Shown: piece after piece, positions 278 to 47,917 of the stretch
Position numbering within the stretch: position 1 is the stretch's first letter
How the letters are laid out: each line of letters opens with the position of its first letter
Translations under genes and position numbers: made by a program
Notes under the pieces: generated by a model
Told to the model about the DNA's origin: nothing
The model's input: the letters and a program-made list of their open reading frames with translations, nothing else
Databases searched by the model: none
Assembly (NCBI GenBank): GCA_964498035.1
Contig: CAZCFW010000001.1
Location: 1-55,285 of the forward strand
Source: an uncultured Candidatus Saccharibacteria bacterium
GTDB taxonomy: Bacteria > Patescibacteriota > Minisyncoccia > Phycocordibacterales > UBA9973
DNA length: 55,285 bases
Reading direction: 5' to 3'

Positions 278-1114
278 ATGAAATCAAAAGCACTACAAAT
301 GTTGATTCCTGAGGGTAATCCAAATGGTTTAAAGGTTATAGAAATACCAGGCTGGTCTGGTAAGTGTTTTATAGCACCTAGGCAGAGTTTGAAAGAATTG
401 AAGGATCGATCTGAAGTGAATCAACCAGGACTTTATATTCTCTTTGGTGTAGATGAAAATACAAGCGATGATCTAGTATATATAGGTGAATCAGAAAACT
501 TTTATTCACGAATCACAAATCATGATGCGAATAAAGATTTTTGGAGTACTGTTGTAATTTTTACTGGTGGATTAAATCGTGCTTTTGTAAAATATCTTGA
601 ATATCGAGCTACAACTTTGGCTCATGAAGCAAATCGAATGAAAATGCAAAATAAAGTACAGCCTCAAGAAAATACACTTTCAGAATTTGAGAAAGTTACA
701 ATTGAAAGCTATTTTGAAAATGTTCAATTTATTCTAAGTTCCTTTGGATATGAAGTTTTTGATAGTATTGTTGAATCTATTTCTGATGCCAAAATTTATA
801 CCCTAAAAGCTGAAGGTGTAGATGCAAAAGCACAATTATTATCTGATGGTAGTTTAAATGTATTAAAAGGTTCAACAGCTAGAATAAGAGAGACAGAAGC
901 TTTCTGGGGGTGGTCACTTGCTGCGCGTAAAAGATTTCTTGAGGAAGGCATACTTGTAGAGAATGGAGATGGAATTTCATATAAATATACAGAGAACGTA
1001 TTGTTTAAAAGTCCATCAGCAGCCGCAGCAACAACAACTGGCCGCCCGATAAACGGATGGACTGCATGGAAAGATGAACAAGGGAATACCCTTGATGATA
1101 ATTTAAGAAAATAA
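278..1114 (+). CDS. GIY-YIG nuclease family protein with DUF4357-like C-terminal domain
   Basis: GIY-YIG-like motifs (LYILFG...VYIGESENFYSRITNH) sit at the N-terminus. The C-terminal part (FKSPSAAAATTTGRPINGWTAWK) is typical of DUF4357. The gene starts 7 nt after the preceding stop. Confidence 0.75.
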   Translation: MKSKALQMLIPEGNPNGLKVIEIPGWSGKCFIAPRQSLKELKDRSEVNQPGLYILFGVDENTSDDLVYIGESENFYSRITNHDANKDFWSTVVIFTGGLNRAFVKYLEYRATTLAHEANRMKMQNKVQPQENTLSEFEKVTIESYFENVQFILSSFGYEVFDSIVESISDAKIYTLKAEGVDAKAQLLSDGSLNVLKGSTARIRETEAFWGWSLAARKRFLEEGILVENGDGISYKYTENVLFKSPSAAAATTTGRPINGWTAWKDEQGNTLDDNLRK

Positions 1115-3223: not shown

Positions 3224-3230
3224 TTAAAAT

Positions 3231-3497
3231 ATGAAAAAAGAAAAATCATTTACGGAAAAGGTTTTGGATATTGTACGGAAGATTCCAAAGGGTAGGACGA
3301 TGACGTATAAGGATGTGGCGAAGATGGCGGGGAGCCCTAGGGCGAGCCGAGCTGTGGGGAGCATCATGAAGGCAAACTATTTGCCTAATGTGCCGTGCCA
3401 CAGGGTGGTGATGAGTAGTGGAAATCCTGGTGAGTACAATCGCGGCGGTGTGAATGCTAAAATAGAATTACTAAAGAGTGAAGGCGCGATTAAATAA
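3231..3497 (+). CDS. MGMT-family methylated-DNA-protein-cysteine methyltransferase, stand-alone DNA-binding/active-site domain (88 aa)
   Basis: TYKDVAKMAGSPRASRAVGSIM...VPCHRVV retains the PCHR active-site cysteine motif. Confidence 0.8.
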   Translation: MKKEKSFTEKVLDIVRKIPKGRTMTYKDVAKMAGSPRASRAVGSIMKANYLPNVPCHRVVMSSGNPGEYNRGGVNAKIELLKSEGAIK

Positions 3498-4838: not shown

Positions 4839-5165
4839 ATGGCAGCAAAAAAAGCAGTAGCAAAGAAGGTGGTCGCAAAAAAGGCAGCTCCTAAGAAAGC
4901 TGTGAAGAAAGCAGGAAATGCAAACTCAGCTTTCATGAGACCAAAGGTTGTGAGTGCAGCACTTCAGGCAATTGTTGGAAAGGGTCCACTTCCTACAACA
5001 GAAGTAGTAAAGAAGCTTTGGGTTTATATCAAGAAGAACGATCTTCAGAATCCTAAGAATAAGAGAAATATTATCGCAGATGATAAGCTACTCGTAGTAT
5101 TCGATGGAAAGAAAGAAATTTCAATGTTTGAAATGACAAAGTATGTAACAAAGAATCTTTCCTAA
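4839..5165 (+). CDS. SWIB/MDM2 domain protein with Lys/Ala-rich N-terminal tail
   Basis: AKKAVAKKVVAKKAAPKKAVKKA tail followed by PLPTTEVVKKLWVYIKKNDLQNPKNKRNIIADDKL..VF, a SWIB-like sequence. Confidence 0.75.
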   Translation: MAAKKAVAKKVVAKKAAPKKAVKKAGNANSAFMRPKVVSAALQAIVGKGPLPTTEVVKKLWVYIKKNDLQNPKNKRNIIADDKLLVVFDGKKEISMFEMTKYVTKNLS

Positions 5166-5185
5166 ATTTAATTTACTCTATCTGT

Positions 5186-5211
5186 AAAATGCACCCATTT
5201 GGGTGCATTTT
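5186..5211 (+). terminator. Rho-independent terminator
   Basis: AAAATGCACCC-ATTT-GGGTGCATTTT hairpin with U-tract. Confidence 0.7.
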
Positions 5212-5309
5212 ATATGGATATTTGCTTTTTTAGTAAATTAGTGTTATTATATAAGAATAATAGCAAAATGCTTTCGAAAGCAATAATTTAACTATAACAA
5301 ATATAATTT

Positions 5310-18368: not shown

Positions 18369-18938
18369 ATGACTCAAAATGAATACAAAAATAAATTAAG
18401 TTCGTTTTATGGATCTCATAACCGAATGCCCACATACACAGAGATGATGCGCCTCTTTGGCTTCAAGAGTAAGAATTCTGTATCAAGACTCGTGGAGAAG
18501 CTCATGGATGCCGGCTTTATCGATAAGGACCCACTAGGAAGGCTTATACCGACGAATATGATGAGTGAAGTGCCGCTCCTTGGGCTTGTGAAGGCTGGAT
18601 TCCCATCACCAAGTGAAGACGTGCTTGAGACTACAATAAACTTAAACAATTATTTAATCCGCAAAAAGGATTCCACATACATACTCGAAGTTGATGGAGA
18701 TTCAATGATAGACGCACACATAGCCGATGGCGACATGGTCATCGCTGAGCGCACAAATACTGCACGCGATGGTGAGATTGTGATTGCAGAAGTAGATGGT
18801 GAATACACAATGAAATATTTTCGTAAGGAGGGAAGTAAAGTCTGGCTAGAACCTGCCAATAAGGACTTCCACAATATCTATCCAGAGAATGACCTACAGA
18901 TTAAAGCAATCGTTAAAGGTGTAATTCGTAAATACTAA
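18369..18938 (+). CDS. lexA: LexA-like repressor (wHTH + S24 peptidase domain)
   Basis: N-terminal PTYTEMMRLFGFKSKNSVSRLVEKLMDAGFI is a LexA-type wHTH. An Ala-Gly site (VKAGF), GDSM (Ser) and TMKYF (Lys) complete the autocleavage apparatus. Confidence 0.8.
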   Translation: MTQNEYKNKLSSFYGSHNRMPTYTEMMRLFGFKSKNSVSRLVEKLMDAGFIDKDPLGRLIPTNMMSEVPLLGLVKAGFPSPSEDVLETTINLNNYLIRKKDSTYILEVDGDSMIDAHIADGDMVIAERTNTARDGEIVIAEVDGEYTMKYFRKEGSKVWLEPANKDFHNIYPENDLQIKAIVKGVIRKY

Positions 18939-18939
18939 G

Positions 18940-19200
18940 ATGAGAGACTTAAGTGATGTAAACCTCGATGATTACCTCATAAATAATAAAGATGCGAGTT
19001 TCATTTTGCAGATTCGTAGTGATAGCTATAAGGATATGAATGTCCTTCATAATGATCTAGCTATCGTGGAGCGCGCCACAAATGCAAAAGATGGAGAAAT
19101 TATTTTGGTCCCTAAGGATGGTGCATGGATTCTCAAATATAAAACATTTAATGATTTGAATTACAGTGCAAAGCTAAGAGGAATTATCAGAGAATATTAA
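18940..19200 (+). CDS. Truncated S24-peptidase (UmuD'-like) protein, 86 aa
   Basis: Aligns by eye to LexA residues ~84-189 of the upstream gene (VNLDDYLINNKDASFILQIRSDSY vs INLNNYLIRKKDSTYILEVDGDSM). Ser and Lys equivalents are retained. There is no HTH and no Ala-Gly cleavage loop. Confidence 0.6.
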   Translation: MRDLSDVNLDDYLINNKDASFILQIRSDSYKDMNVLHNDLAIVERATNAKDGEIILVPKDGAWILKYKTFNDLNYSAKLRGIIREY

Positions 19201-19202
19201 AT

Positions 19203-20459
19203 ATGAAAGAGAAAATTCTACATGTAGATGGTGATGCGTTTTTCGCCGCGTGTGAGATGGCGAGATTTCCAATGCTTTGGAATAAGCCACTTGTGGTGGG
19301 CCATAGCATCGCATCTGCCATGAGCTACGAGGCTAAGAAGCTCGGTGTGCATAGAGCCATGCCTATCTTTGAGGTGAAGAAAACTTTCCCGCATATGGCT
19401 GTAATCGGCACGCATTTTGAGCTGTATCATATGTATGGCGATAAGCTTTCAAGCGTCTTATCGCGCTATACAGACAGAATCGAGCGCTACAGTGTGGATG
19501 AATGCTTCGCAATACTTACTGAATCTGAAATGAATAAATACGGAACCTGGGAGAACTTTCTTCTTACCATAAAGAATGATGTGCAAAGTACTCTAGGGAT
19601 TACATTTTCTTTCGGCTTAGCAGATACAAAGGTACTTGCGAAAGTCGCTTCGAAATTTGAGAAGCCAAATGGTCTTACTTATATATCCGAAAGTAATCGC
19701 GAGAAAGTACTAAAGAAAGTGCCGATTGAGAATATCTGGGGTGTGGGCCGAGCAACTGCCAAGAATTTGCAAAAGATGGGTGTGAAGAATGCGTATCAGT
19801 TCGTAAAATTAAGTGAGTCTTATGTGGACACATATTTCCATAAACCGTTAGCCGAACTTTGGCATGAACTTTGCGGACGAAGGATTATGAATCTGTCGGA
19901 CAGTCTGGAAATTGATTTAGCGAAATCATTTCAATCAATGCGCACGTTTAAACCTGCGACGGATAATAAAATTTTTATTGCATCAGAACTTTCAAACAAT
20001 GTAGAAATAGTTTGCGCACGAATGCGCGAGTCGGACCTCGTTACCAAGAATATTTCAATTGTACTTAAACAAGGAGAATATAATTTATCTCAAATTGAGG
20101 TCGTAATGCCGAATTATACAAACAGCCCAAGTGACATACTAAACTACCTCGAAAGTTCGTTTGATAAGCTGTTTGTGGGTGGTGCTAAGTACCGCCAGAC
20201 TGGCTTTGTGGCCGCAAATCTCAAGCCTAGGGCTCATATTCAGAATGATCTATTCAATGTCCAAAACAACATATTAGAAAATAGTAGGGGATACATGTCA
20301 ATTGTTGATGTAATTCATAATAAATTTGGAAATAGTTCGATTGGATTATTGTCCAGCTTAAATGCAGTAAATCGAATGAATGATAAAACGCTCGTGGATG
20401 AGGGTAAAGACCCATATATTTGGAATCTTCCATTGCCTTATCTTGGAGAGATATATTAG
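19203..20459 (+). CDS. Y-family (UmuC-like) translesion DNA polymerase
   Basis: HVDGDAFFAACE..RFP.LWNKPLVV, FELYHMYGDKL and ERYSVDECF motifs parallel the UmuC N-terminus. Confidence 0.85.
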   Translation: MKEKILHVDGDAFFAACEMARFPMLWNKPLVVGHSIASAMSYEAKKLGVHRAMPIFEVKKTFPHMAVIGTHFELYHMYGDKLSSVLSRYTDRIERYSVDECFAILTESEMNKYGTWENFLLTIKNDVQSTLGITFSFGLADTKVLAKVASKFEKPNGLTYISESNREKVLKKVPIENIWGVGRATAKNLQKMGVKNAYQFVKLSESYVDTYFHKPLAELWHELCGRRIMNLSDSLEIDLAKSFQSMRTFKPATDNKIFIASELSNNVEIVCARMRESDLVTKNISIVLKQGEYNLSQIEVVMPNYTNSPSDILNYLESSFDKLFVGGAKYRQTGFVAANLKPRAHIQNDLFNVQNNILENSRGYMSIVDVIHNKFGNSSIGLLSSLNAVNRMNDKTLVDEGKDPYIWNLPLPYLGEIY

Positions 20460-34922: not shown

Positions 34923-35849
34923 TTAATGCACATCTTTGTGCTCACCACCCTCTTCTTCATGATGCTCATCATCATGATCTTGTGATGCTATTGTGTAGTA
35001 CACAAGAGTAAGGATGGCGAAAATGAATGCTTGAATTACTCCGACGAATACTTCAAGTAAAAGGAATGGTGTCGGCAGTACATATGCAAGAAGTGCTCCC
35101 ATAGATGCAAGGAGAACTTCTCCTGCAAATACGTTTCCAAAAAGACGGAATGAAAGTGATGCAATCTTTGCGAATTCTCCGATAAGCTCAAGTGCACTTA
35201 CGAAAACCATTATTGGAGCAGTCATTATGACCATTGGATCTTTACGAATCTTGGTAAAAATCTCTCCAAGTGCCTTCAGATTAACATATTTGTTGAAAGT
35301 TTTCCAGAGACCGATAGTAAAGACTCCAAACAGATTTGCTCCAAGTACGGAAAGTATGGCGAGTGGTAATGTGCCGTTGATGTCTGCTGTTCCAGAGCGG
35401 ATTAGAGGAATGAAAGCTTTGCCGTGATCGGTCATTTCTATTAGGCCGAATCCTCCGAGCGGTAGTATTCCAAGCCAGTTGTTTAAGAGAACTATGAAGA
35501 ATACAGAGAAAACTATCGGGAAAGCTTTGTTTGTGATTACCCTACTCTGTGTGACCTGGTCGCAAAGTGAGAGTGCCCCATCAATAACTAGTTCAAAAAG
35601 ATTTTGAATCCCCTTCGGAATTTTTTTGATTGAAAGCCTGACTGCGAGTGCGATTATAAAAATAATAACGACGACTATCCAGCTAGTGAAAAGTGCGTTT
35701 GTGATTGTGAAATTGCCTATGTGAGCTATAGGCTCTGCGTATAGAGTGGATTCATGTGATACTTCATCATTTGCGTGCTCTGTAGCCGCAATGGGTGCTC
35801 CGTTTACTAGTTCTGTATTAATCTCATTGTGTGTTGTTTCTTGTGTCAT
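34923..35849 (-). CDS. atpB: F0F1 ATP synthase subunit a, with His/Asp/Glu-rich C-terminal tail
   Basis: SLSFRLFGNVFAGEVLL carries the essential Arg motif. The tail is QDHDDEHHEEEGGEHKDVH. Confidence 0.9.
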   Translation of the reverse strand: MTQETTHNEINTELVNGAPIAATEHANDEVSHESTLYAEPIAHIGNFTITNALFTSWIVVVIIFIIALAVRLSIKKIPKGIQNLFELVIDGALSLCDQVTQSRVITNKAFPIVFSVFFIVLLNNWLGILPLGGFGLIEMTDHGKAFIPLIRSGTADINGTLPLAILSVLGANLFGVFTIGLWKTFNKYVNLKALGEIFTKIRKDPMVIMTAPIMVFVSALELIGEFAKIASLSFRLFGNVFAGEVLLASMGALLAYVLPTPFLLLEVFVGVIQAFIFAILTLVYYTIASQDHDDEHHEEEGGEHKDVH

Positions 35850-36123
35850 ATGTTGTGTCTATTGTATTTTTCTTTTTATTTTTGCTTTCCTCTTCAATTT
35901 TGCGGACGTATCTGACTGCAATTTTGCTTATTCCTATCATCGATACGATGAATGCGAGTGCGATGGTAATGATGAATATCCAGGGTTCTGTATCGTATTT
36001 ATCATCAAAATATTTACCCACGTAGAGTGCGATGATTACGGGGACAGCTATCCATCCGGACATCTGTACGAATAGCACCGCTCCCGGTTTCCACCATGCT
36101 TGTTTTATATCTGTATCATTCAT
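35824..36123 (-). CDS. AtpZ/AtpI-like small membrane protein
   Basis: Start taken at ATG 36123 (MNDTDIKQAWWKPG...). Two TM helices, located upstream of atpB and overlapping it by 26 nt. The longer ORF-track start runs into the tRNA region. Confidence 0.55.
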   Translation of the reverse strand: MNDTDIKQAWWKPGAVLFVQMSGWIAVPVIIALYVGKYFDDKYDTEPWIFIITIALAFIVSMIGISKIAVRYVRKIEEESKNKKKNTIDTTYDTRNNTQ

Positions 36124-36145
36124 AAAAAGAATTGGCCGAAAGGCC

Positions 36146-36185
36146 TGGTGAGTGTGGATGGAATCGGACCATCGACCTCTGTCTT
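36146..36185 (-). other. tRNA-Ile 3' half (positions 38-73 plus encoded CCA), outer copy
   Basis: 36147-36185 is identical to 36230-36268 (39 nt). It is followed on the minus strand by GGCC-TTTC-GGCC and a T-run. Confidence 0.85.
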
Positions 36186-36231
36186 TTAAATGGCAGCGAG
36201 TTGGAAAATGAAAATAGGCTACCGCTCTCGG
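36186..36231. repeat. Inverted-repeat arm flanking the inner tRNA (3' side in tRNA sense)
   Basis: TTAAATGG...GTTGGAAAATGAAAATAG...CTCTC is the reverse complement of blocks in 36304-36361 (6 + 16 + 5 matching nt). Confidence 0.8.
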
Positions 36232-36303
36232 TGAGTGTGGATGGAATCGGACCATCGACCTCTGTCTTATCAGGACAGCGTTCTACCACTGAACTACACA
36301 CTC
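36232..36303 (-). tRNA. tRNA-Ile (anticodon GAU), complete inner copy
   Basis: Hand-folded as GAGTGTG-TA-GTTC-AGTGGTA-GAAC-G-CTGTC-CTGATAA-GACAG-AGGTC-GATGG-TCCGATT-CCATC-CACACTC-A. All four stems are Watson-Crick. The 3' flank is CCG, so CCA is not fully encoded. Confidence 0.8.
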
Positions 36304-36361
36304 ACGGAGAGAATTAACAGCTATTTTCATTTTCAACGAGCGAACCATTTATATCGTTAGA
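36304..36361. repeat. Inverted-repeat arm flanking the inner tRNA (5' side in tRNA sense)
   Basis: GGAGAG...CTATTTTCATTTTCAAC...CCATTTAT is complementary to 36186-36231. Confidence 0.8.
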
Positions 36362-36397
36362 TATCAGGACAGCGTTCTACCACTGAACTACACACTC
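36362..36397 (-). other. tRNA-Ile 5' half (positions 1-37), outer copy
   Basis: 36362-36398 is identical to 36268-36304 (37 nt). It ends right after the anticodon loop sequence CTGATA. Confidence 0.85.
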
Positions 36398-36454
36398 ATA
36401 AATTTAAAAACAACTACATACTCAATACGCCTATCTACATGCCTAGGCACCTAA

Positions 36455-36483
36455 AATATAGCAGAAATAATAGCTTTGTGCAA
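36455..36483 (-). promoter_or_regulatory. Promoter TTGCAC-17-TATATT (minus strand) upstream of the tRNA cluster
   Basis: Found in the reverse complement of 36455-36483. It leaves a ~50-nt leader before the outer 5' half. Confidence 0.45.
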
Positions 36484-36520: not shown

Positions 36521-37240
36521 TTAAAATCTAAAACTTTTATGAGATTCAATAAAGGCATATTGAAAGCCAGTATAAAAATCCCACTTCCCTTCATGAACCT
36601 GTCCGGTTCCGATCATGAATACCGAATGATGAAGTTTTGTCGGTTCAAAACCTAATTGGAAGAAGTGAAAATCATACCCATTCCGTATCCTACCCATACT
36701 TTGGACTACCAAAGCAAGATTTTTATTGATCTTAATAGGATTACTCAAAAAATTATAACTTACTTCAGTTTTGCGAAGCTTATGCTCAGCATTTCCAAAT
36801 AAGCTATAATTTACTCCCACGGATGCAATATGAAACCAGTTTGAGCACGGTTTTAAATCTTCAAGATAAAGTTTAAACCCAGTCTGGAAGTGATTTTTAC
36901 TGTACTCGGTTCCAAATAGATCATTCTCGAAACTTGCTGTTAGGTGTAGAGGCCCATACAATTTAGGGTCTAGTGAAATAGTGTAAGCGTATTCCTTGTT
37001 TGAGAAATTATATTCCCCAAAGAAATAACTTTTTAAAAAGGAATTTTTACCTAATTCTAGTAAGTAGTTTCCACTACTTATGATGTCATTCTCTTTTGGA
37101 GCCCATTGGGCTTCTACTTCGAGCGCTTGGAATTTAAATCTACGAGAATGATAGTTTAGAGAGTCTTGAGCAACTGCTCTACAACTAATAAAGATAAACG
37201 CATATAATAGCGTTGAACTGGATAGTATTTGCTTTGCCAT
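36521..37240 (-). CDS. Secreted beta-barrel-like protein (outer-membrane-protein-like), 239 aa
   Basis: Signal peptide (LLYAFIFISCRAVAQD), alternating aromatic/polar pattern throughout, and a C-terminal aromatic ...SFRF typical of OMP beta-signals. Confidence 0.45.
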   Translation of the reverse strand: MAKQILSSSTLLYAFIFISCRAVAQDSLNYHSRRFKFQALEVEAQWAPKENDIISSGNYLLELGKNSFLKSYFFGEYNFSNKEYAYTISLDPKLYGPLHLTASFENDLFGTEYSKNHFQTGFKLYLEDLKPCSNWFHIASVGVNYSLFGNAEHKLRKTEVSYNFLSNPIKINKNLALVVQSMGRIRNGYDFHFFQLGFEPTKLHHSVFMIGTGQVHEGKWDFYTGFQYAFIESHKSFRF

Positions 37241-43447: not shown

Positions 43448-46400
43448 ATGAAAGTTATCAAATTCCTAATCCTGACGCTCGCTTTAATTAGCTTGAGCAA
43501 TCTGACATTCGGTCAATCTACACCATCGGTGCAAACCAATTATGCAAGACGCATATTTGGAACTTCAGCTATTTTGGATGGCTACGTGGATCCTAACAAT
43601 GATTCCACAATCAGCTATTTCATTTATTGGAAAAGCAGTTCAACAAAGATAGATACAAGTGGTATTTACCACAACTATCTTGATGCCGGTGCTATTTCAC
43701 AAACCATTACAGGGCTAACATCAAATACTCTCTACAGTTTCAAGATTGTAGCGAAGAATAAAAATGGAACCAGTAGCGGACTTGTGAATACTTTCTTTAC
43801 CCCGACCATGACGGCTCCAAGTGTTTATACCTGGAACCCTGGTTGGGTTGGTGATACTGATCAATTACAAATAGGTGGAGCTTTCCAAGCAAACGGATTG
43901 ATTACAACTACCTGGTACCAGTACGACAGTCTTCCCACCGCATTCAGAGATTCTACTTCTGCTGTTCTTCAGCAGGAAACTGATCAATGGGGCATGTGGG
44001 AAAATCTGATGAACTTAAAAACGTACAAGAAGTACTACGGTAGATTAGTTGCAAAAAATGATTCCGGAATTACTTATGGCAATACAATTGTCATGAGGAC
44101 ACAGGGCAGTAAACCGCCGATAGTGGCTACGGATTCTGCAACTAATATTATGCAAACATCTGCTTACTTAAATGGAAAGATAAATGCACTAGGTAACTGT
44201 TATAACTGGCGTTTTGAATACGGCACAAGCCCGACTTCATTAAGCAATGTTATCCCATTAAATTATAACAATACTAATTGGGTATGTAATAGTTACTATA
44301 GTGGTAATCCTGATGAAGATTTTGTAAGTACTGTAATTTATGATTTAACAAATAACACTACTTATTATTATCGAATCGTTGGAGAAAGTTGGAGAGGCAC
44401 AACCCGTGGCAATGTAATATCATTTACTACCCAGGGTAGCCTCGCCCCAGATGCAATTACTTTAACTGCGGACAGTGTTTCTTACACTAGTGCTCAGTTG
44501 ATTGGATACTATGATGCAAGGGGTACAACTCCAGTTCAGAATTCATTCGAGTATGGTAAAACCGTTTACTTCGGATTAACAACAGTACCTGTTAGTAATT
44601 CGAAAGCAACTGATTCAGTCAGAGTAAAAGTTCCAAACTTAGAAAGTGGTACTGTATACTTTTTTCGCCTAAAATCGAGAAATCAGCACGGTACGACTTA
44701 CGGGAACGTTATTACTTTTACTACAAAGAATGATCAACCTCCATCAGTAACTACTGATTCGGCAACTGCTGGTCTAACGACTGCAAATGCATATGGTAGT
44801 TATAAACCAAATGGAACAGCTACGGAAACATGGACTGAATGGGATTCTGTCCCAAATTTGTATCGTTTCAGAACTAGCAAAAGTTCTCGTGGAACTACAA
44901 ACGGCAATATTGCCGAAACTATTTCAGGTCTTCTGACTAATCACATATATTATGTGAGGTGTGCTGATTCAAATGCTTTTGGAAAAGCGTATGGTCAAAC
45001 CATCCCAGTGAGAACTCTGAATAATGAGAAACCGAGCACAACGACTGACTCAGCAACAGGAATTGCTGATACATATGCATACCTAAATGCAATTGTAGAT
45101 GGAAAAGGAACAAATAGTAATTATATGTTTGAGTATGGCTTTACGCCTACCTCACTTATAAAAACTACTACTCTAACTTCGTTTGGTATGGGATTCGTTT
45201 TTGTATCTTCCCCAATATTTGGGCTTCCTGCTAACACCATAGTTTACTATCGTATAAAAGCGAATAATACATGGGGTACAAATTTTGGAAGTATCAAATC
45301 ATTTACAACATCGCCTAACCAGGCTCCTGCTGTAAATATTTTTGACAAAGATTCACTTTCACCAACAACGGTACAGCTGAAGATAGCAATTGATGGTAAG
45401 GGTACGTTAAGTAAGGTTGCTGTAAAATACGGAACTTCACTTTCTTTCGGAACCCAAACGATATTTGTAAACGCAACAAAAGTTGTGGATACGATAGTTA
45501 TTAAGTTAGTAAACTTAATTCCTGACTTGTTGCACTACACTGCGCCAATTGGCGAAAATAGTTTTGGTACGACTCAAGGCAGTGTCTTTGGGTTTACTAC
45601 ACCAAATAATGAACCGCCCAGCGTGGCGACTGATTCGTCAAATAATATTGGGCTTAATTCAATAACTGTACACGGAAATTTCGATTCAAAGAAAAATTCA
45701 ACACAGACATGGGTGGTGTACGATACATTGCCAAACATGTTTAGGTTCAGTACTTCTAAAGTTGCACGAGGCACTTCATTGGGAAATATTTCGGATGTCC
45801 TATCTGGGCTTTTGAAAAATCACGTATACTATTTCAAGTATGCGGCTGAAAATTTCTACGGATTAAGTTATGGTCAAACCCTAACTTCAAAAACCACAAA
45901 TGATGAAAAGCCTTTAGCTACAACTGATAGTGCGGATGGTATCACGGATACCTACGCAACCTTGAATGCACTTGTTGATGGAAAAGGAACTGATAGTTAT
46001 TACCAATTCGAGTACGGCGCTTCGCCTACTGCTTTAGTAAAAACAACAGCTCTTACTACTTTCGGGAAAGGATCTTCTTATGTTTCCGCAGTTATCTACG
46101 GACAACAATCAAACTCCACAATTTATTATCGTGTAAAAGCGATTAATAATTGGGGATTTACCAGAGGAAATATTCTTTCTGTAAAGACTGCACCAGCAGG
46201 TACGCCGATTGTTTCAATCTTGACTATCGACTCTATTACTACAAATACTGCGCGAGCGGTAATAGTAATAAATGGACAAGGTACTTTAAGTAAAGTAGCG
46301 CTTAAATATGGTCAAACGCTTTCCTTCGGAACGCAGACAATATTTATAACTGCTAATAAGTTGATCGATACAATCGTAGTTAAACTAAATTCGTTAACAT

Positions 46401-47917
46401 CCGATAAGCAATATTATGTTGCTGCACTCGGTGAGAACAATTTCGGTATAACTCAAAGTACTACTGATGGATTCTACACTCTGAATAATAAACCAGCGAA
46501 GGTTTATTTTAGTTCTATATCTATGCTTCCTACAAGTGCTACTTTTTTTGGATCTTACAATTCAAAGAAAAATAGTACATATGTTTGGGTGCAGTATGGA
46601 ACTAACTCATCGTTGTCTCAAAAAACTAATGTAATTAGCAATCTTTTAGATTCTAATAATTTTAGTTTGACGGCTAATTCCTTACTAGCGAATACATGGT
46701 ATCTTTACCGTTATTATGCAAGTAATGTTTATGGAAGTGATTCGACAGCGATTGACAGCTTCCTTACACCCGGTAATCAAGCACCTTTAGTAATAACAGA
46801 CACTGTTGGAATGTTAGGAACCAGCTACGCTACCCTGAATTTAAGAGTAGATGGAAGAGGAACAAGCACAGTAGTTTATTTCATATATGGTACTAATCCT
46901 TCAAATTTATCTAGCTCTACCCTATCAATGGTATCTGGAAAATACGCAAATTCGATTAACTTACCAGCGTATGGATTAAATTCAAATACTGTTTACTACT
47001 ACAAAGCAGCCTCTGTAAATTCATGGGGTACAAGTTTTGGTTCAGTTTTAAGCTTTAAAACTTTAGACAACCAAAGTGGTCCACCACCAAGTACTAGAAA
47101 AGCTACTATTGTTGTTCTTACAACAAGTTCTGGTTCAACCTATGGAACTGTGAATGCGACCTTTAACGGTCACGGAAATAGTTTCTCGTATTGGGTAGAA
47201 TATAACGACCAATTTACTTGGGCTAGTACGTCTATTATGACAAGCAAGGATACTGGGATTCAAACAATTCCAATCCTAATACCTAATTTGTTAATGAATC
47301 GTGTGTGGTATTGTACTGTACACCTAAAAAATTCTTTAACAGATACCGTTGCTTTTGTTGAACTAAGCACGTTCAACATAATGCCTCCGATTGCTAAGAC
47401 ATTAGATATTCTTGGTATCATGAATGACAGAGCCATATTTCATGGCTATTATGATGGTTTTGATGCTGGGGCTACAACGTGGTTTGAATACGGAGATTCG
47501 TTTCCTCTTTCAAACCAAACGAATAAAATATTTCACAATGGGACTCACGACAGTTTATCTCTACTGGTAAATAATCTGAAGCCCGGAAAAAAATATTTTT
47601 ACCGTTTTGCCGCAAAGAATAGTTATGGTACCAATTATGGTGACCCAGTTCAGTTCAAGACCTCAGGTATAGCATCTGGTATTAAAAATGATGTAGCTAA
47701 AGGAAAAATTTCGGTTTATCCTAATCCTACAACTGGTGTAGTAAAAGTCACCGGCTATGAGGGTGTTGTTGTATTAATTGATTTAACAGGCAAGGAACTA
47801 TTCCGAAAAACTGTTAATCAAAGTAACAATGTTCTCGATCTTTCTGGTTTAGGAGCTGGTATGTATATGCTTTACTCTGAAAACCATTCTTTGATGCAAA
47901 AAATTATAATAAATTAA
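43448..47917 (+). CDS. Giant secreted protein (1489 aa): 14 tandem Fn3-like modules plus T9SS-type C-terminal sorting domain
   Basis: Signal peptide, then ~97-aa modules each ending ...Y(Y/F)(Y/F)R..A.N..G...G....F.T. The final ~70 aa (ISVYPNPTTGVVKV...IDLTGKELF...LDLSGLGAGMYML...QKIIIN) match the Por/T9SS type A sorting-domain pattern. Confidence 0.8.
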   Translation: MKVIKFLILTLALISLSNLTFGQSTPSVQTNYARRIFGTSAILDGYVDPNNDSTISYFIYWKSSSTKIDTSGIYHNYLDAGAISQTITGLTSNTLYSFKIVAKNKNGTSSGLVNTFFTPTMTAPSVYTWNPGWVGDTDQLQIGGAFQANGLITTTWYQYDSLPTAFRDSTSAVLQQETDQWGMWENLMNLKTYKKYYGRLVAKNDSGITYGNTIVMRTQGSKPPIVATDSATNIMQTSAYLNGKINALGNCYNWRFEYGTSPTSLSNVIPLNYNNTNWVCNSYYSGNPDEDFVSTVIYDLTNNTTYYYRIVGESWRGTTRGNVISFTTQGSLAPDAITLTADSVSYTSAQLIGYYDARGTTPVQNSFEYGKTVYFGLTTVPVSNSKATDSVRVKVPNLESGTVYFFRLKSRNQHGTTYGNVITFTTKNDQPPSVTTDSATAGLTTANAYGSYKPNGTATETWTEWDSVPNLYRFRTSKSSRGTTNGNIAETISGLLTNHIYYVRCADSNAFGKAYGQTIPVRTLNNEKPSTTTDSATGIADTYAYLNAIVDGKGTNSNYMFEYGFTPTSLIKTTTLTSFGMGFVFVSSPIFGLPANTIVYYRIKANNTWGTNFGSIKSFTTSPNQAPAVNIFDKDSLSPTTVQLKIAIDGKGTLSKVAVKYGTSLSFGTQTIFVNATKVVDTIVIKLVNLIPDLLHYTAPIGENSFGTTQGSVFGFTTPNNEPPSVATDSSNNIGLNSITVHGNFDSKKNSTQTWVVYDTLPNMFRFSTSKVARGTSLGNISDVLSGLLKNHVYYFKYAAENFYGLSYGQTLTSKTTNDEKPLATTDSADGITDTYATLNALVDGKGTDSYYQFEYGASPTALVKTTALTTFGKGSSYVSAVIYGQQSNSTIYYRVKAINNWGFTRGNILSVKTAPAGTPIVSILTIDSITTNTARAVIVINGQGTLSKVALKYGQTLSFGTQTIFITANKLIDTIVVKLNSLTSDKQYYVAALGENNFGITQSTTDGFYTLNNKPAKVYFSSISMLPTSATFFGSYNSKKNSTYVWVQYGTNSSLSQKTNVISNLLDSNNFSLTANSLLANTWYLYRYYASNVYGSDSTAIDSFLTPGNQAPLVITDTVGMLGTSYATLNLRVDGRGTSTVVYFIYGTNPSNLSSSTLSMVSGKYANSINLPAYGLNSNTVYYYKAASVNSWGTSFGSVLSFKTLDNQSGPPPSTRKATIVVLTTSSGSTYGTVNATFNGHGNSFSYWVEYNDQFTWASTSIMTSKDTGIQTIPILIPNLLMNRVWYCTVHLKNSLTDTVAFVELSTFNIMPPIAKTLDILGIMNDRAIFHGYYDGFDAGATTWFEYGDSFPLSNQTNKIFHNGTHDSLSLLVNNLKPGKKYFYRFAAKNSYGTNYGDPVQFKTSGIASGIKNDVAKGKISVYPNPTTGVVKVTGYEGVVVLIDLTGKELFRKTVNQSNNVLDLSGLGAGMYMLYSENHSLMQKIIIN
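43814..47380 (+). repeat. Four copies of a ~292-aa (about 876-nt) three-module super-repeat inside the giant gene
   Basis: Approximate aa blocks are 123-430, 431-722, 723-1015 and 1016-1311. PPSVTTDSAT (431) recurs as PPSVATDS (723). Each A, B and C module type aligns with its counterpart one period later. Confidence 0.7.

Follow-up and report, generated by a model that had tools for sequence, protein, structure and literature searches.

We analysed a 55,285-nucleotide stretch of DNA (hereafter the window; positions 1 to 55,285 of contig CAZCFW010000001.1, assembly GCA_964498035.1), deposited as an uncultured Candidatus Saccharibacteria bacterium, in which a complete tRNA-Ile(GAU) gene lies nested inside a second, interrupted copy of itself. 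Read along the minus strand, the unit begins with an outer 5′ half (36397-36362), followed by a 58-nt arm (36361-36304), the complete tRNA-Ile(GAU) (36303-36232), a 46-nt arm (36231-36186) and an outer 3′ half (36185-36146). The halves form two direct repeats with the inner gene, one of 37 nt (36362-36398 and 36268-36304) and one of 39 nt (36147-36185 and 36230-36268), both with 100% identity, and the two repeats meet at one nucleotide, 36268, which is A37 of the inner gene. The outer copy is interrupted at 37/38, the canonical position of tRNA introns. An initial annotation, made from the sequence, had described this nested layout together with its coordinates, its exact repeats and the site of the interruption, and all of these held. 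A single tRNA-Ile(GAU) was called at 36303-36232 (71.7 bits; ARAGORN and Rfam), and the outer copy was not called.

The two arms are reverse-complementary in three blocks, as had also been proposed: a 14-nt perfect inverted repeat (36204-36217 and 36321-36334) and the shorter CTCTC/GAGAG and AAATGG/CCATTT blocks. A 281-nt transcript of the unit was predicted to adopt the nested fold at -104.7 kcal/mol (z = -8.4), and none of 200 shuffled sequences folded as well. The features of the locus are listed in Table 1; L numbers designate the related loci and contigs that were compared, and WIN the window's own locus.

Table 1. Features of the nested tRNA-Ile(GAU) locus and of the associated element E2. 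Positions are those of the window unless an L number is given.
Feature	Position	Strand	Basis or remark
Promoter-like site	36455..36482	-	TGCACA, 16 nt spacer, TATATT with TG; 5′ of the entire unit
Decayed, older third copy of the tRNA 5′ end, GAGTATGTAGTTGTTT	36408..36423	-	repeat family D3, 92%
Outer 5′ half, tRNA positions 1-37 (acceptor 5′ strand, D arm, anticodon-stem 5′ strand, loop to A37)	36362..36397	-	exact copy of 36268-36303
Variable junction linker TCTAACGATAT between outer 5′ half and helix P1	36351..36361	-	
Arm A, 5′ strand of rod: P1 AAATGG; loop TTCGCTC; P2 GTTGAAAATGAAAATAG; loop CTGTTAATT; P3 CTCTCCGT	36304..36350	-	alignment, pair counts, nhmmer profile
boxA-like GCTCGTTGAAA in arm A	36331..36341	-	boxA comparison
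Inner complete tRNA-Ile(GAU)	36232..36303	-	ARAGORN and Rfam; probable functional copy
Arm B, 3′ strand of rod: P3′ CCGAGAG; loop CGGTAGC; P2′ CTATTTTCATTTTCCAAC; loop TCGCTG; P1′ CCATTT; then AA	36186..36231	-	
Outer 3′ half, tRNA position 37/38 to discriminator, plus CCA	36146..36185	-	exact copy of inner 3′ part
Small hairpin GGCC-TTTC-GGCC followed by U-rich run, terminator-/attenuator-like, between tRNA unit and atp operon	36124..36145	-	sequence
AtpZ/AtpI-like small membrane protein, first gene of F-type ATP synthase operon	35824..36123	-	PF09527
E2	L026 3471-3600; L028 854-965; L057 55-200; L084 about 5095-5240; L088 about 860-945 (minus strand)		

Boxes homologous to the promoter-like site (TTGC..N17..TATA(A/G)T) lie upstream of the tRNA in related genomes, and this site is likely to be the start of one transcript covering both halves, both arms and the inner tRNA. 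An internal promoter in arm A was discarded by inspection, the spacing from TTGAAA to TTAATT being just 13-14 nt, and a small open reading frame in the arms (MKIAVNSLRECVVQW) was set aside as not conserved, its counterpart in L007 reading ATG AAA TAA. The hairpin that follows the unit falls below the 5-bp stem rule of the scanner; an analogous hairpin and T-run are found in relatives. The initial annotation had drawn attention to this hairpin and to the CCA encoded on the outer 3′ half, both of which are present in the window; the CCA, on the other hand, is not kept in relatives, where the outer copy ends in CACATGG, CACTTGT, CATAAGG or CACAAAA.

The junction linker differs in length and sequence in every relative. 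The decayed third copy at 36408-36423 carries a characteristic D-arm variant, GTAGTTGTTGG, which also occurs upstream of the tRNA, or as the outer 5′ half, in L010, L012, L017, L018, L028, L079, L081, L082 and L086, and its being common to many genomes suggests repeated layers of disruption at the tRNA locus. Both the inner tRNA (36244-36250) and the outer copy (36161-36167) carry the T-loop TCCGATT; its position 55 is a C, whereas nearly all tRNAs have U (pseudouridine 55) there. About half of the related tRNA-Ile genes also have TCCGATT, and the remainder TTCGATT.

Recurrence of the nested locus

Comparison with relatives, which the initial annotation had advised, revealed homologous nested loci in about 13 other Paceibacteria genomes from different studies. 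The same architecture with homologous arms was seen in L007 (equal to L090), L011, L091, L014, L018, L064, L084, L086, L088 and L095, and L068 carries a divergent nested version of identical architecture. Partial forms were found in L081, in which the 5′ half and arm A are duplicated, in L082, which is without the outer 3′ half, and in L023, which has arms only. A profile of the arms scored 25-28 bits in L023 and gave a truncated match in L082, the other loci scoring 40-54 bits. The break point lies at 37/38 in all relatives, and not at the variable positions that had been named at the outset as a pattern that would speak against the proposal.

Contigs of the window's own species were retrieved from other samples by exact-protein look-up, as SPAdes contigs. 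The full nested form was present in six further contigs (L101, L104, L105, L107, L108 and L111, the last identical to the window); this recurrence speaks against the assembly artefact that the initial annotation had allowed for. WIN, L111 and L100 have an outer 3′ half that does not differ from the inner copy, and five contigs have a diverged one (GACAGAGAGGGTGG...). In L106, arm B and the outer 3′ half are deleted, and three more contigs are compatible with the same allele; the deletion is the exact product expected from recombination between the 39-nt repeats. The assemblies behind these alleles are all of low coverage, and two of them, from Logan, were built with short k-mers.

Scaffold gaps or runs of N lie within or beside the tRNA in L030 (about 330-339), L079 (about 539-548) and L006 (upstream of 3636), and the nested form may be under-reported, since its repeats break assemblies. 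A further 21 related loci without a tRNA call were considered as hidden split genes and rejected, the tRNA being absent there or the region falling at contig ends or scaffold gaps. The nested structure is thus real, recurrent and conserved, and is neither a chance arrangement nor an assembly artefact.

The arms form a covarying RNA rod

We aligned arm A, the inner tRNA and arm B from 13 loci and scored a model in which the helices P1, P2 and P3 are continuous with the acceptor stem. Standard pairs filled 94.7% of the cells, compared to 39-55% with slid partners, 15 pairs had changed on both sides, and none of 500 shuffles reached the observed values. Compensatory changes included AAATGG/CCATTT to AAACGG/CCGTTT, a G-C pair at 17/154 that has become A-U in L014, and TGAAAATAG/CTATTTTCA to CAACAAACAA/TTGTTTGTTG in L088. 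RNAalifold, applied to seven full-length units, independently recovered the inner cloverleaf, the rod, and the outer acceptor stem and T arm, with 21 compensatory pairs. The internal loops are also conserved in sequence (TTCGCTC opposite CTCNCTG, and TTAATT opposite CGGTA). Furthermore, syntenic genomes are 86-89% identical in the nested region compared to 68-75% in the flanking coding DNA. Because the pairing covaries and the nested region is better conserved than the flanking genes, the rod is under purifying selection and is not a neutral scar; a simple duplication scar, one of the alternatives initially put forward, is insufficient to account for it.

The unit shares with rRNA-type processing stems a long leader-trailer helix around a stable RNA, in this case backed by covariation, and a search of 785 kb of related DNA with the arm profile returned matches exclusively flanking tRNA-Ile. 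The conserved arms may constitute a processing stem, possibly of a boxA-like kind. Two other ideas about the arms were abandoned. A role in enforcing the thermodynamic register between the identical halves is weak, the pairing being 1.00 in the native sequence, 0.99 with the arms deleted and a median of 0.70 with the arms shuffled, and the likeness of P2 to the integron attC motifs GTTRRRY / RYYYAAC was judged to be a by-product of the palindrome.

Arm A also carries a motif, GCTCGTT[G/A/C]AAAA, which in most relatives matches 10 of the 11 positions of the boxA consensus GYTCTTTAANA (PMC5725501), a consensus that is γ-proteobacterial. A near-identical sequence, GTTCGTTGAAAT, lies about 30 nt past the promoter of the 16S gene of L088 (about 3226-3237, minus strand), the sole 16S leader compared. 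The match and its counterpart in the 16S leader suggest an rRNA-style processing stem in which Nus factors might be involved. The boxA-like motif is AT-rich, however, and has about three chance matches elsewhere in 1.6 Mb, and in L014 and L084 its positions 5-7, on which E. coli boxA depends, change together with the bases that they pair with.

Fate of the outer halves

At all nested loci the inner tRNA has stayed intact; it is identical to the plain tRNA of the sister genomes L002 and L003, and for these reasons it is probably the working gene. In the outer copy, the anticodon loop reads CTGAG (anticodon GAG) at seven loci, where splicing at 37/38 would give an Ile body the anticodon GAG; L011 and L086 have lost the loop. 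In L011, L091, L068 and L088, a second, unrelated insertion lies at the T stem or loop of the outer 3′ half. This half is decayed in L064 and absent from L082, and L023 is without either half. A precise splice at 37/38 would yield an intact tRNA-Ile(GAU) at two of 14 loci (WIN and L084). The putative exons are thus not conserved for a functional spliced tRNA, and the outer halves do not appear, from this comparison, to be conserved as a spliceable gene.

Acceptor stems vary between genomes (GAGTGTG, GCGTGTG, GCGCGTG and GCGTGCG), as do T stems (GATGG, GAAAG, CTTGG, GAAGG and GTAAG); within one genome, the outer and inner copies differ at 0-3 positions, so that the copies evolve in concert. These small differences, together with the presence of identical and diverged 3′ halves in one species, point to ongoing gene conversion from the inner gene, accompanied by erosion at the junction where the homology ends. 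Gene conversion would thus be the homogenising force, with selection for identity as the alternative.

Splicing motifs and catalytic RNA

The initial annotation had likened the layout to archaeal intron-containing or split tRNAs whose halves are joined, a reading that the comparison with relatives did not bear out. The archaeal bulge-helix-bulge (BHB) has two 3-nt bulges that contain the splice sites, with 4 bp between them (PMC4033280). No BHB motif was found at any junction: TCAG would be required against loop positions 32-35 (CTGA), and the four intron bases that precede the 3′ splice site read TTTA in practically every member and TTTG in L014 (L086 not counted). We rejected archaeal BHB splicing, the junction bases being unable to form the 4-bp central helix; the few splice-competent loci, the eroded or absent outer halves and the deletion allele described above likewise argue against joined halves. 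The arrangement also departs from a split gene of the Nanoarchaeum type in that the halves lie 176 nt apart, on one strand and behind one promoter-like site.

Group I introns have about 10 helices and a core of about 100 nt (PMC4033280). Neither a group I core nor a ribozyme was detected by Rfam, which returned the tRNA alone at gathering thresholds and with permissive filters, and the 176-nt insert is made up of the 72 nt of the tRNA and two mutually pairing arms, without a catalytic core. A CUGAGA/GAAAG resemblance to the hammerhead core failed on inspection. ARAGORN in intron mode, a check recommended beforehand, did not recover an outer gene with a 176-nt intron; its output was a hybrid model for WIN and L068 and, for L095, a spurious tRNA-SeC. 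A search for RtcB, an EndA-like endonuclease and RNase III had been recommended too, and none of these, nor an integrase or a reverse transcriptase, is encoded in the 55-kb window.

Distribution and origin

The flanks of the outer halves in WIN and L014 match the plain-tRNA flanks of their close sisters L002 and L015, which would place the cassette inside the ancestral gene. In a rough AtpB tree, the nested loci are scattered in one large clade, each with a plain-tRNA sister, and L068 falls in another clade. The similarity of the arms does not follow that of AtpB (Spearman -0.31); the arms of L018 and L086, for instance, are 93% similar and their AtpB proteins 62%. In L088, the cassette-bearing tRNA is located after the 16S gene and before an unrelated protein, away from atp. 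The CTGAG erosion is common to many lineages, which counts against a recent gain. On the available sequences, this pattern fits an old structure with frequent repeat-mediated loss and possibly some horizontal exchange.

No clear terminal inverted repeats were found at the ends of the cassette, where the overlap is at most a 3-nt ATA, and viral contigs contained no copy of the arms or of a tRNA-Ile half. A phage or plasmid attachment (att) site was considered and rejected: in viral contigs the arm motif gave nothing but a chance match inside a gene, and the 3′-half pattern matched unrelated tRNA-Thr genes alone. As at att sites, part of the tRNA is directly repeated and an intact tRNA is kept, although atypically the 5′ half is repeated upstream too, and there is neither an integrase or element cargo nor a matching attP, with 46-58 nt lying between the repeats. 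The processing stem and the tRNA-targeted insertion that the initial annotation had offered as alternatives pointed in the right direction.

Just downstream of the tRNA, or in L088 within the outer 3′ half, there is a second small and conserved non-coding element, E2 (about 115-150 nt). It starts with an acceptor-5′-strand-like GCG[A/G/T]GTG and holds an antisense copy of the T-loop and T-stem that covaries with the tRNA; at its end the T-stem 3′ strand and the acceptor 3′ strand are repeated. E2 looks like a T-loop-position counterpart of the anticodon-loop cassette. In addition, the tRNA unit and its promoter are inverted relative to the atp operon and the RRM-protein gene in L004, L010, L011, L039, L060, L066, L072 and L084; small inversions around tRNA-Ile are frequent.

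Genomic neighbourhood

A complete, co-oriented F-type ATP synthase operon lies downstream of the tRNA unit. Of 80 related genomes, 59 have a tRNA-Ile(GAU) ahead of their atp operon; the tRNA forms the leader of this operon in most relatives. All relatives of the window's AtpB come from metagenome-assembled genomes of Candidatus Nomurabacteria / Paceibacteria, which belong to the Candidate Phyla Radiation (CPR)/Patescibacteria. In L054, L063, L070 and L073, an ATG directly follows the tRNA 3′ end, so that the atpZ start codon abuts the tRNA. Judging from this arrangement of the genes, maturation of the tRNA is likely to set the 5′ end of the atp mRNA.

Upstream of the unit are genes for a 239-amino-acid protein, an RRM protein and RF-2. 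The first of these (36521-37240, minus strand) has no Pfam match, and sister strains (L104-L106, L101/L107) carry in its place a different gene, for a 247-amino-acid protein, and a terminator. The region 36.5-39.9 kb had been taken for a foreign block; its first gene does differ between strains, but no integrase or mobility gene was found there, and 36521-37240 is a strain-variable spot without mobility genes. The window otherwise contains ordinary chromosomal genes. Among them, a 1489-amino-acid protein (43448-47917, plus strand) has fibronectin-III-like repeats and a C-terminal Por_Secre_tail, a sorting domain of type IX secretion that one would not expect in a CPR bacterium. A GIY-YIG nuclease with DUF4357/RAMA (278-1114), an EVE-domain protein (1813-2298) and a LexA-like repressor beside a DinB/UmuC-family polymerase, an SOS-type module (18369-20459), are all encoded on the plus strand.

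Discussion

We favour, with moderate confidence, the interpretation that the locus is a self-compensating, tRNA-carrying cassette at 37/38, of which the inner tRNA works and the outer halves are unspliced relics that are kept alike by gene conversion. A resident tRNA-Ile(GAU) would have been interrupted after nucleotide 37 by a non-coding cassette of about 176 bp, consisting of a complete tRNA-Ile(GAU) at the tip of a conserved rod of about 45 bp, which two conserved internal loops divide into three helices. The interruption of an essential, probably single-copy gene would have been free of cost because the cassette brings its own tRNA. From one promoter 5′ of the outer 5′ half, transcription would proceed through the halves, the arms, the inner tRNA and the hairpin with its U-run (36145-36124) into the atp operon, and the RNA would fold as a nested rod. 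A double-strand nuclease such as RNase III could then open the arm duplex, followed by RNase P cleavage, 3′ trimming and CCA addition. The opening of the rod would have to precede the action of RNase P and the 3′ enzymes because the leader and trailer are paired right up to the inner acceptor stem, and the CCA would be added afterwards because most copies do not encode it. The outer halves would be subject to erosion at the junction, to further insertions and to loss through recombination between the direct repeats, which would leave a plain tRNA gene again.

Several observations weigh against the self-compensating cassette. A structure that is easily deleted persists in more than 10 deeply diverged lineages, which hints at a selective value or a spreading mechanism outside the model, and neither clear terminal inverted repeats, nor an overlap longer than the 3-nt ATA, nor a transposase or integrase is available to explain the insertion. 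In the thermodynamic model, the inner and outer register is kept without the arms (inner pairing 0.99), leaving the conservation of the arms unaccounted for, and the sequence conservation of the two internal loops is not explained either. The proposed non-splicing of the outer halves draws on one kind of evidence, their comparative decay, and the outer genes of WIN and L084 may be intact enough to be spliced.

These difficulties lead to alternatives in which more than the inner tRNA matters. It is conceivable, though in our estimation unlikely, that the whole nested RNA is the functional unit and requires the outer tRNA-like fold, with its acceptor, D and T arms and a rod projecting from the anticodon stem, either as a processing or folding scaffold that offers entry points to RNase P and 3′ nucleases and separates the tRNA from the atp mRNA, or as a stable two-domain non-coding RNA, with arms that might recruit Nus factors through the boxA-like motif and thereby join distant strands co-transcriptionally, as in rRNA operons. 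Such a function would account for the persistence of unstable repeats across deep divergence, with outer halves kept at 11 of 14 loci, for the conservation of arms and internal loops beyond the needs of pairing, and for the arms being weakest where outer halves have been lost (L023 and L082). The 10/11 boxA match, the similar GTTCGTTGAAAT of the L088 16S leader and the position of the tRNA directly 5′ of the atp operon in 59 of 80 genomes are in line with it. However, a plain tRNA suffices for most relatives, the window's closest ones among them, the outer D arms and 3′ halves decay in several lineages, and L106 is a natural deletion allele. The boxA match, moreover, leans on one rRNA leader and on an AT-rich motif that has about three chance matches in 1.6 Mb, and its E. 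coli-critical positions vary with their pairing partners in L014 and L084. A genuine intron-containing outer tRNA, from which a bacterial pathway excises the 176-nt pre-tRNA insert and ligates the halves (for example by RNase P/Z or an anticodon-loop nuclease and RtcB-type ligation), would yield two tRNA-Ile per transcript, at least in WIN and L084, where the intact halves would rebuild CUGAUAA. The interruption does coincide precisely with the canonical 37/38 site, the two halves are brought together by the arms, and the outer halves stay tRNA-like and co-vary with the inner gene. We nevertheless regard this as improbable, given that the junctions have no BHB and give no group I or ribozyme signal, that an intact product is possible at two of 14 loci and a GAG anticodon would sit on an Ile body at seven, that the junction linker is not conserved, and that the outer 3′ half is diverged or deleted in most strains of the window's own species; that EndA and RtcB were not found in the 55-kb window is a weak point, as most of the genome lies outside it.

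The origin of the cassette admits alternatives as well. We entertain, tentatively and with some doubt, an element, actively mobile though non-autonomous, that targets specifically the tRNA-Ile(GAU) anticodon loop and would spread horizontally by transformation and recombination via the tRNA-identical flanks, or with a recombinase in trans, the locus being a hot spot for tRNA-targeting mini-elements. The cassette is patchily distributed, every nested genome having a sister with a plain tRNA, and similarity among the arms does not mirror that among the hosts (Spearman -0.31). The same cassette lies beside atp in most genomes and beside 16S in L088, and the locus is layered with older 5′ fragments and has E2 at the T-loop position. 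The anticodon loop and the T-loop are reportedly the two classical crossover sites of integrases in tRNA genes, as Williams is said to have described in 2002. Against mobility stand the lack of a transposase, an integrase or terminal inverted repeats, with an overlap of at most 3 nt, and the finding of no copy in viral contigs and none outside tRNA-Ile. In addition, the CTGAG erosion common to many lineages implies that the insertions are old and not recent, and short sequences and saturation could themselves yield the incongruence. As for a neutral duplication scar or an assembly artefact with unconstrained arms, replication errors can make such repeats and assemblers do struggle here (gaps within the tRNA in L030 and L079), but independent assemblies and many species share the structure, covariation and conservation of the arms extend across deep divergence, and every member is broken at the same point; we consider such a scar or artefact extremely improbable.

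A review of tRNA gene diversity describes bacterial tRNA genes as uniform, with self-splicing group I and II introns at 37/38 as the sole notable exception (PMC4033280). In our searches of the literature, we came across no account of a tRNA that lies inside a split copy of itself. Judged by its sequence, the locus would be new as a bacterial arrangement and related to disrupted tRNA genes or to tRNA-targeted insertion with a duplicated target. That it is instead a categorically new RNA-level or mobile element seems unlikely to us; this would be a protein-free, hairpin-armed, tRNA-carrying intron that spreads into tRNA-Ile anticodon loops, with RNase III, P and Z releasing the inner tRNA and, in intact lineages, the outer halves being re-joined or forming a two-piece tRNA-like RNA. 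If a tRNA-carrying intron did exist, it would be the bacterial counterpart of the mobile tRNA introns and split tRNAs of archaea and would illustrate, in organisms alive today, how tRNA genes come to be split, and if the outer halves or the rod proved to be a functional RNA, they would define a new class of bacterial tRNA-linked RNA elements. The locus shows one route by which an essential single-copy tRNA gene can tolerate disruption, and offers a natural system for gene conversion and repeat-mediated loss on a 40-nt scale. It also bears on annotation, since standard tRNA finders report the inner gene alone and assemblers break at the locus.

Comparison with known systems

Archaeal BHB-dependent, split and tri-split tRNAs resemble the nested locus in a break exactly after nucleotide 37 and in complementary flanks able to join the halves, and multi-intron archaeal tRNAs recall the extra T-arm interruptions of some outer copies. 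The nested locus is unlike them in its bacterial host, the absence of a BHB, an insert that is a full copy of the same tRNA, its single transcription unit and an outer anticodon that is mostly eroded. Bacterial group I introns, as in tRNA-Leu(UAA), tRNA-fMet and the tRNA-Ile of Azoarcus, also interrupt a tRNA gene next to the anticodon; here, however, the insert is without a catalytic core and matches no Rfam intron model, and the tRNA and rod make up the whole of it.

The tRNA fragments at integrase att sites, which lie in the anticodon loop or T-loop, likewise form partial-tRNA direct repeats that flank an insert and keep an intact tRNA, and the break points seen here are in the anticodon loop and, for E2 and the second insertions, in the T-loop. 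In contrast to att sites, both halves are duplicated, and they are nested instead of lying side by side; the 176-nt insert holds a tRNA only and no integrase, and its arms covary. The rod itself resembles the rRNA processing stems with boxA, part of the RNase III / Nus-factor system, and rRNA intervening sequences, which share a long leader-trailer helix with internal loops around a stable RNA; the 5′ strand here carries a boxA-like motif, and the L088 unit lies just after 16S. tRNA-Ile(GAU) is, moreover, a classical rRNA-spacer tRNA. The present helix differs in that it encloses a tRNA, inside a split tRNA and 5′ of the ATP synthase operon, with RNase III cleavage and boxA function both putative. 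Finally, the engineered tRNA scaffold similarly carries a cargo RNA on a helix in place of the anticodon loop, while its acceptor and T arms are still offered to processing enzymes. The nested locus is a natural arrangement in which the cargo is the same tRNA, and a benefit of the scaffold is hypothetical in this case.

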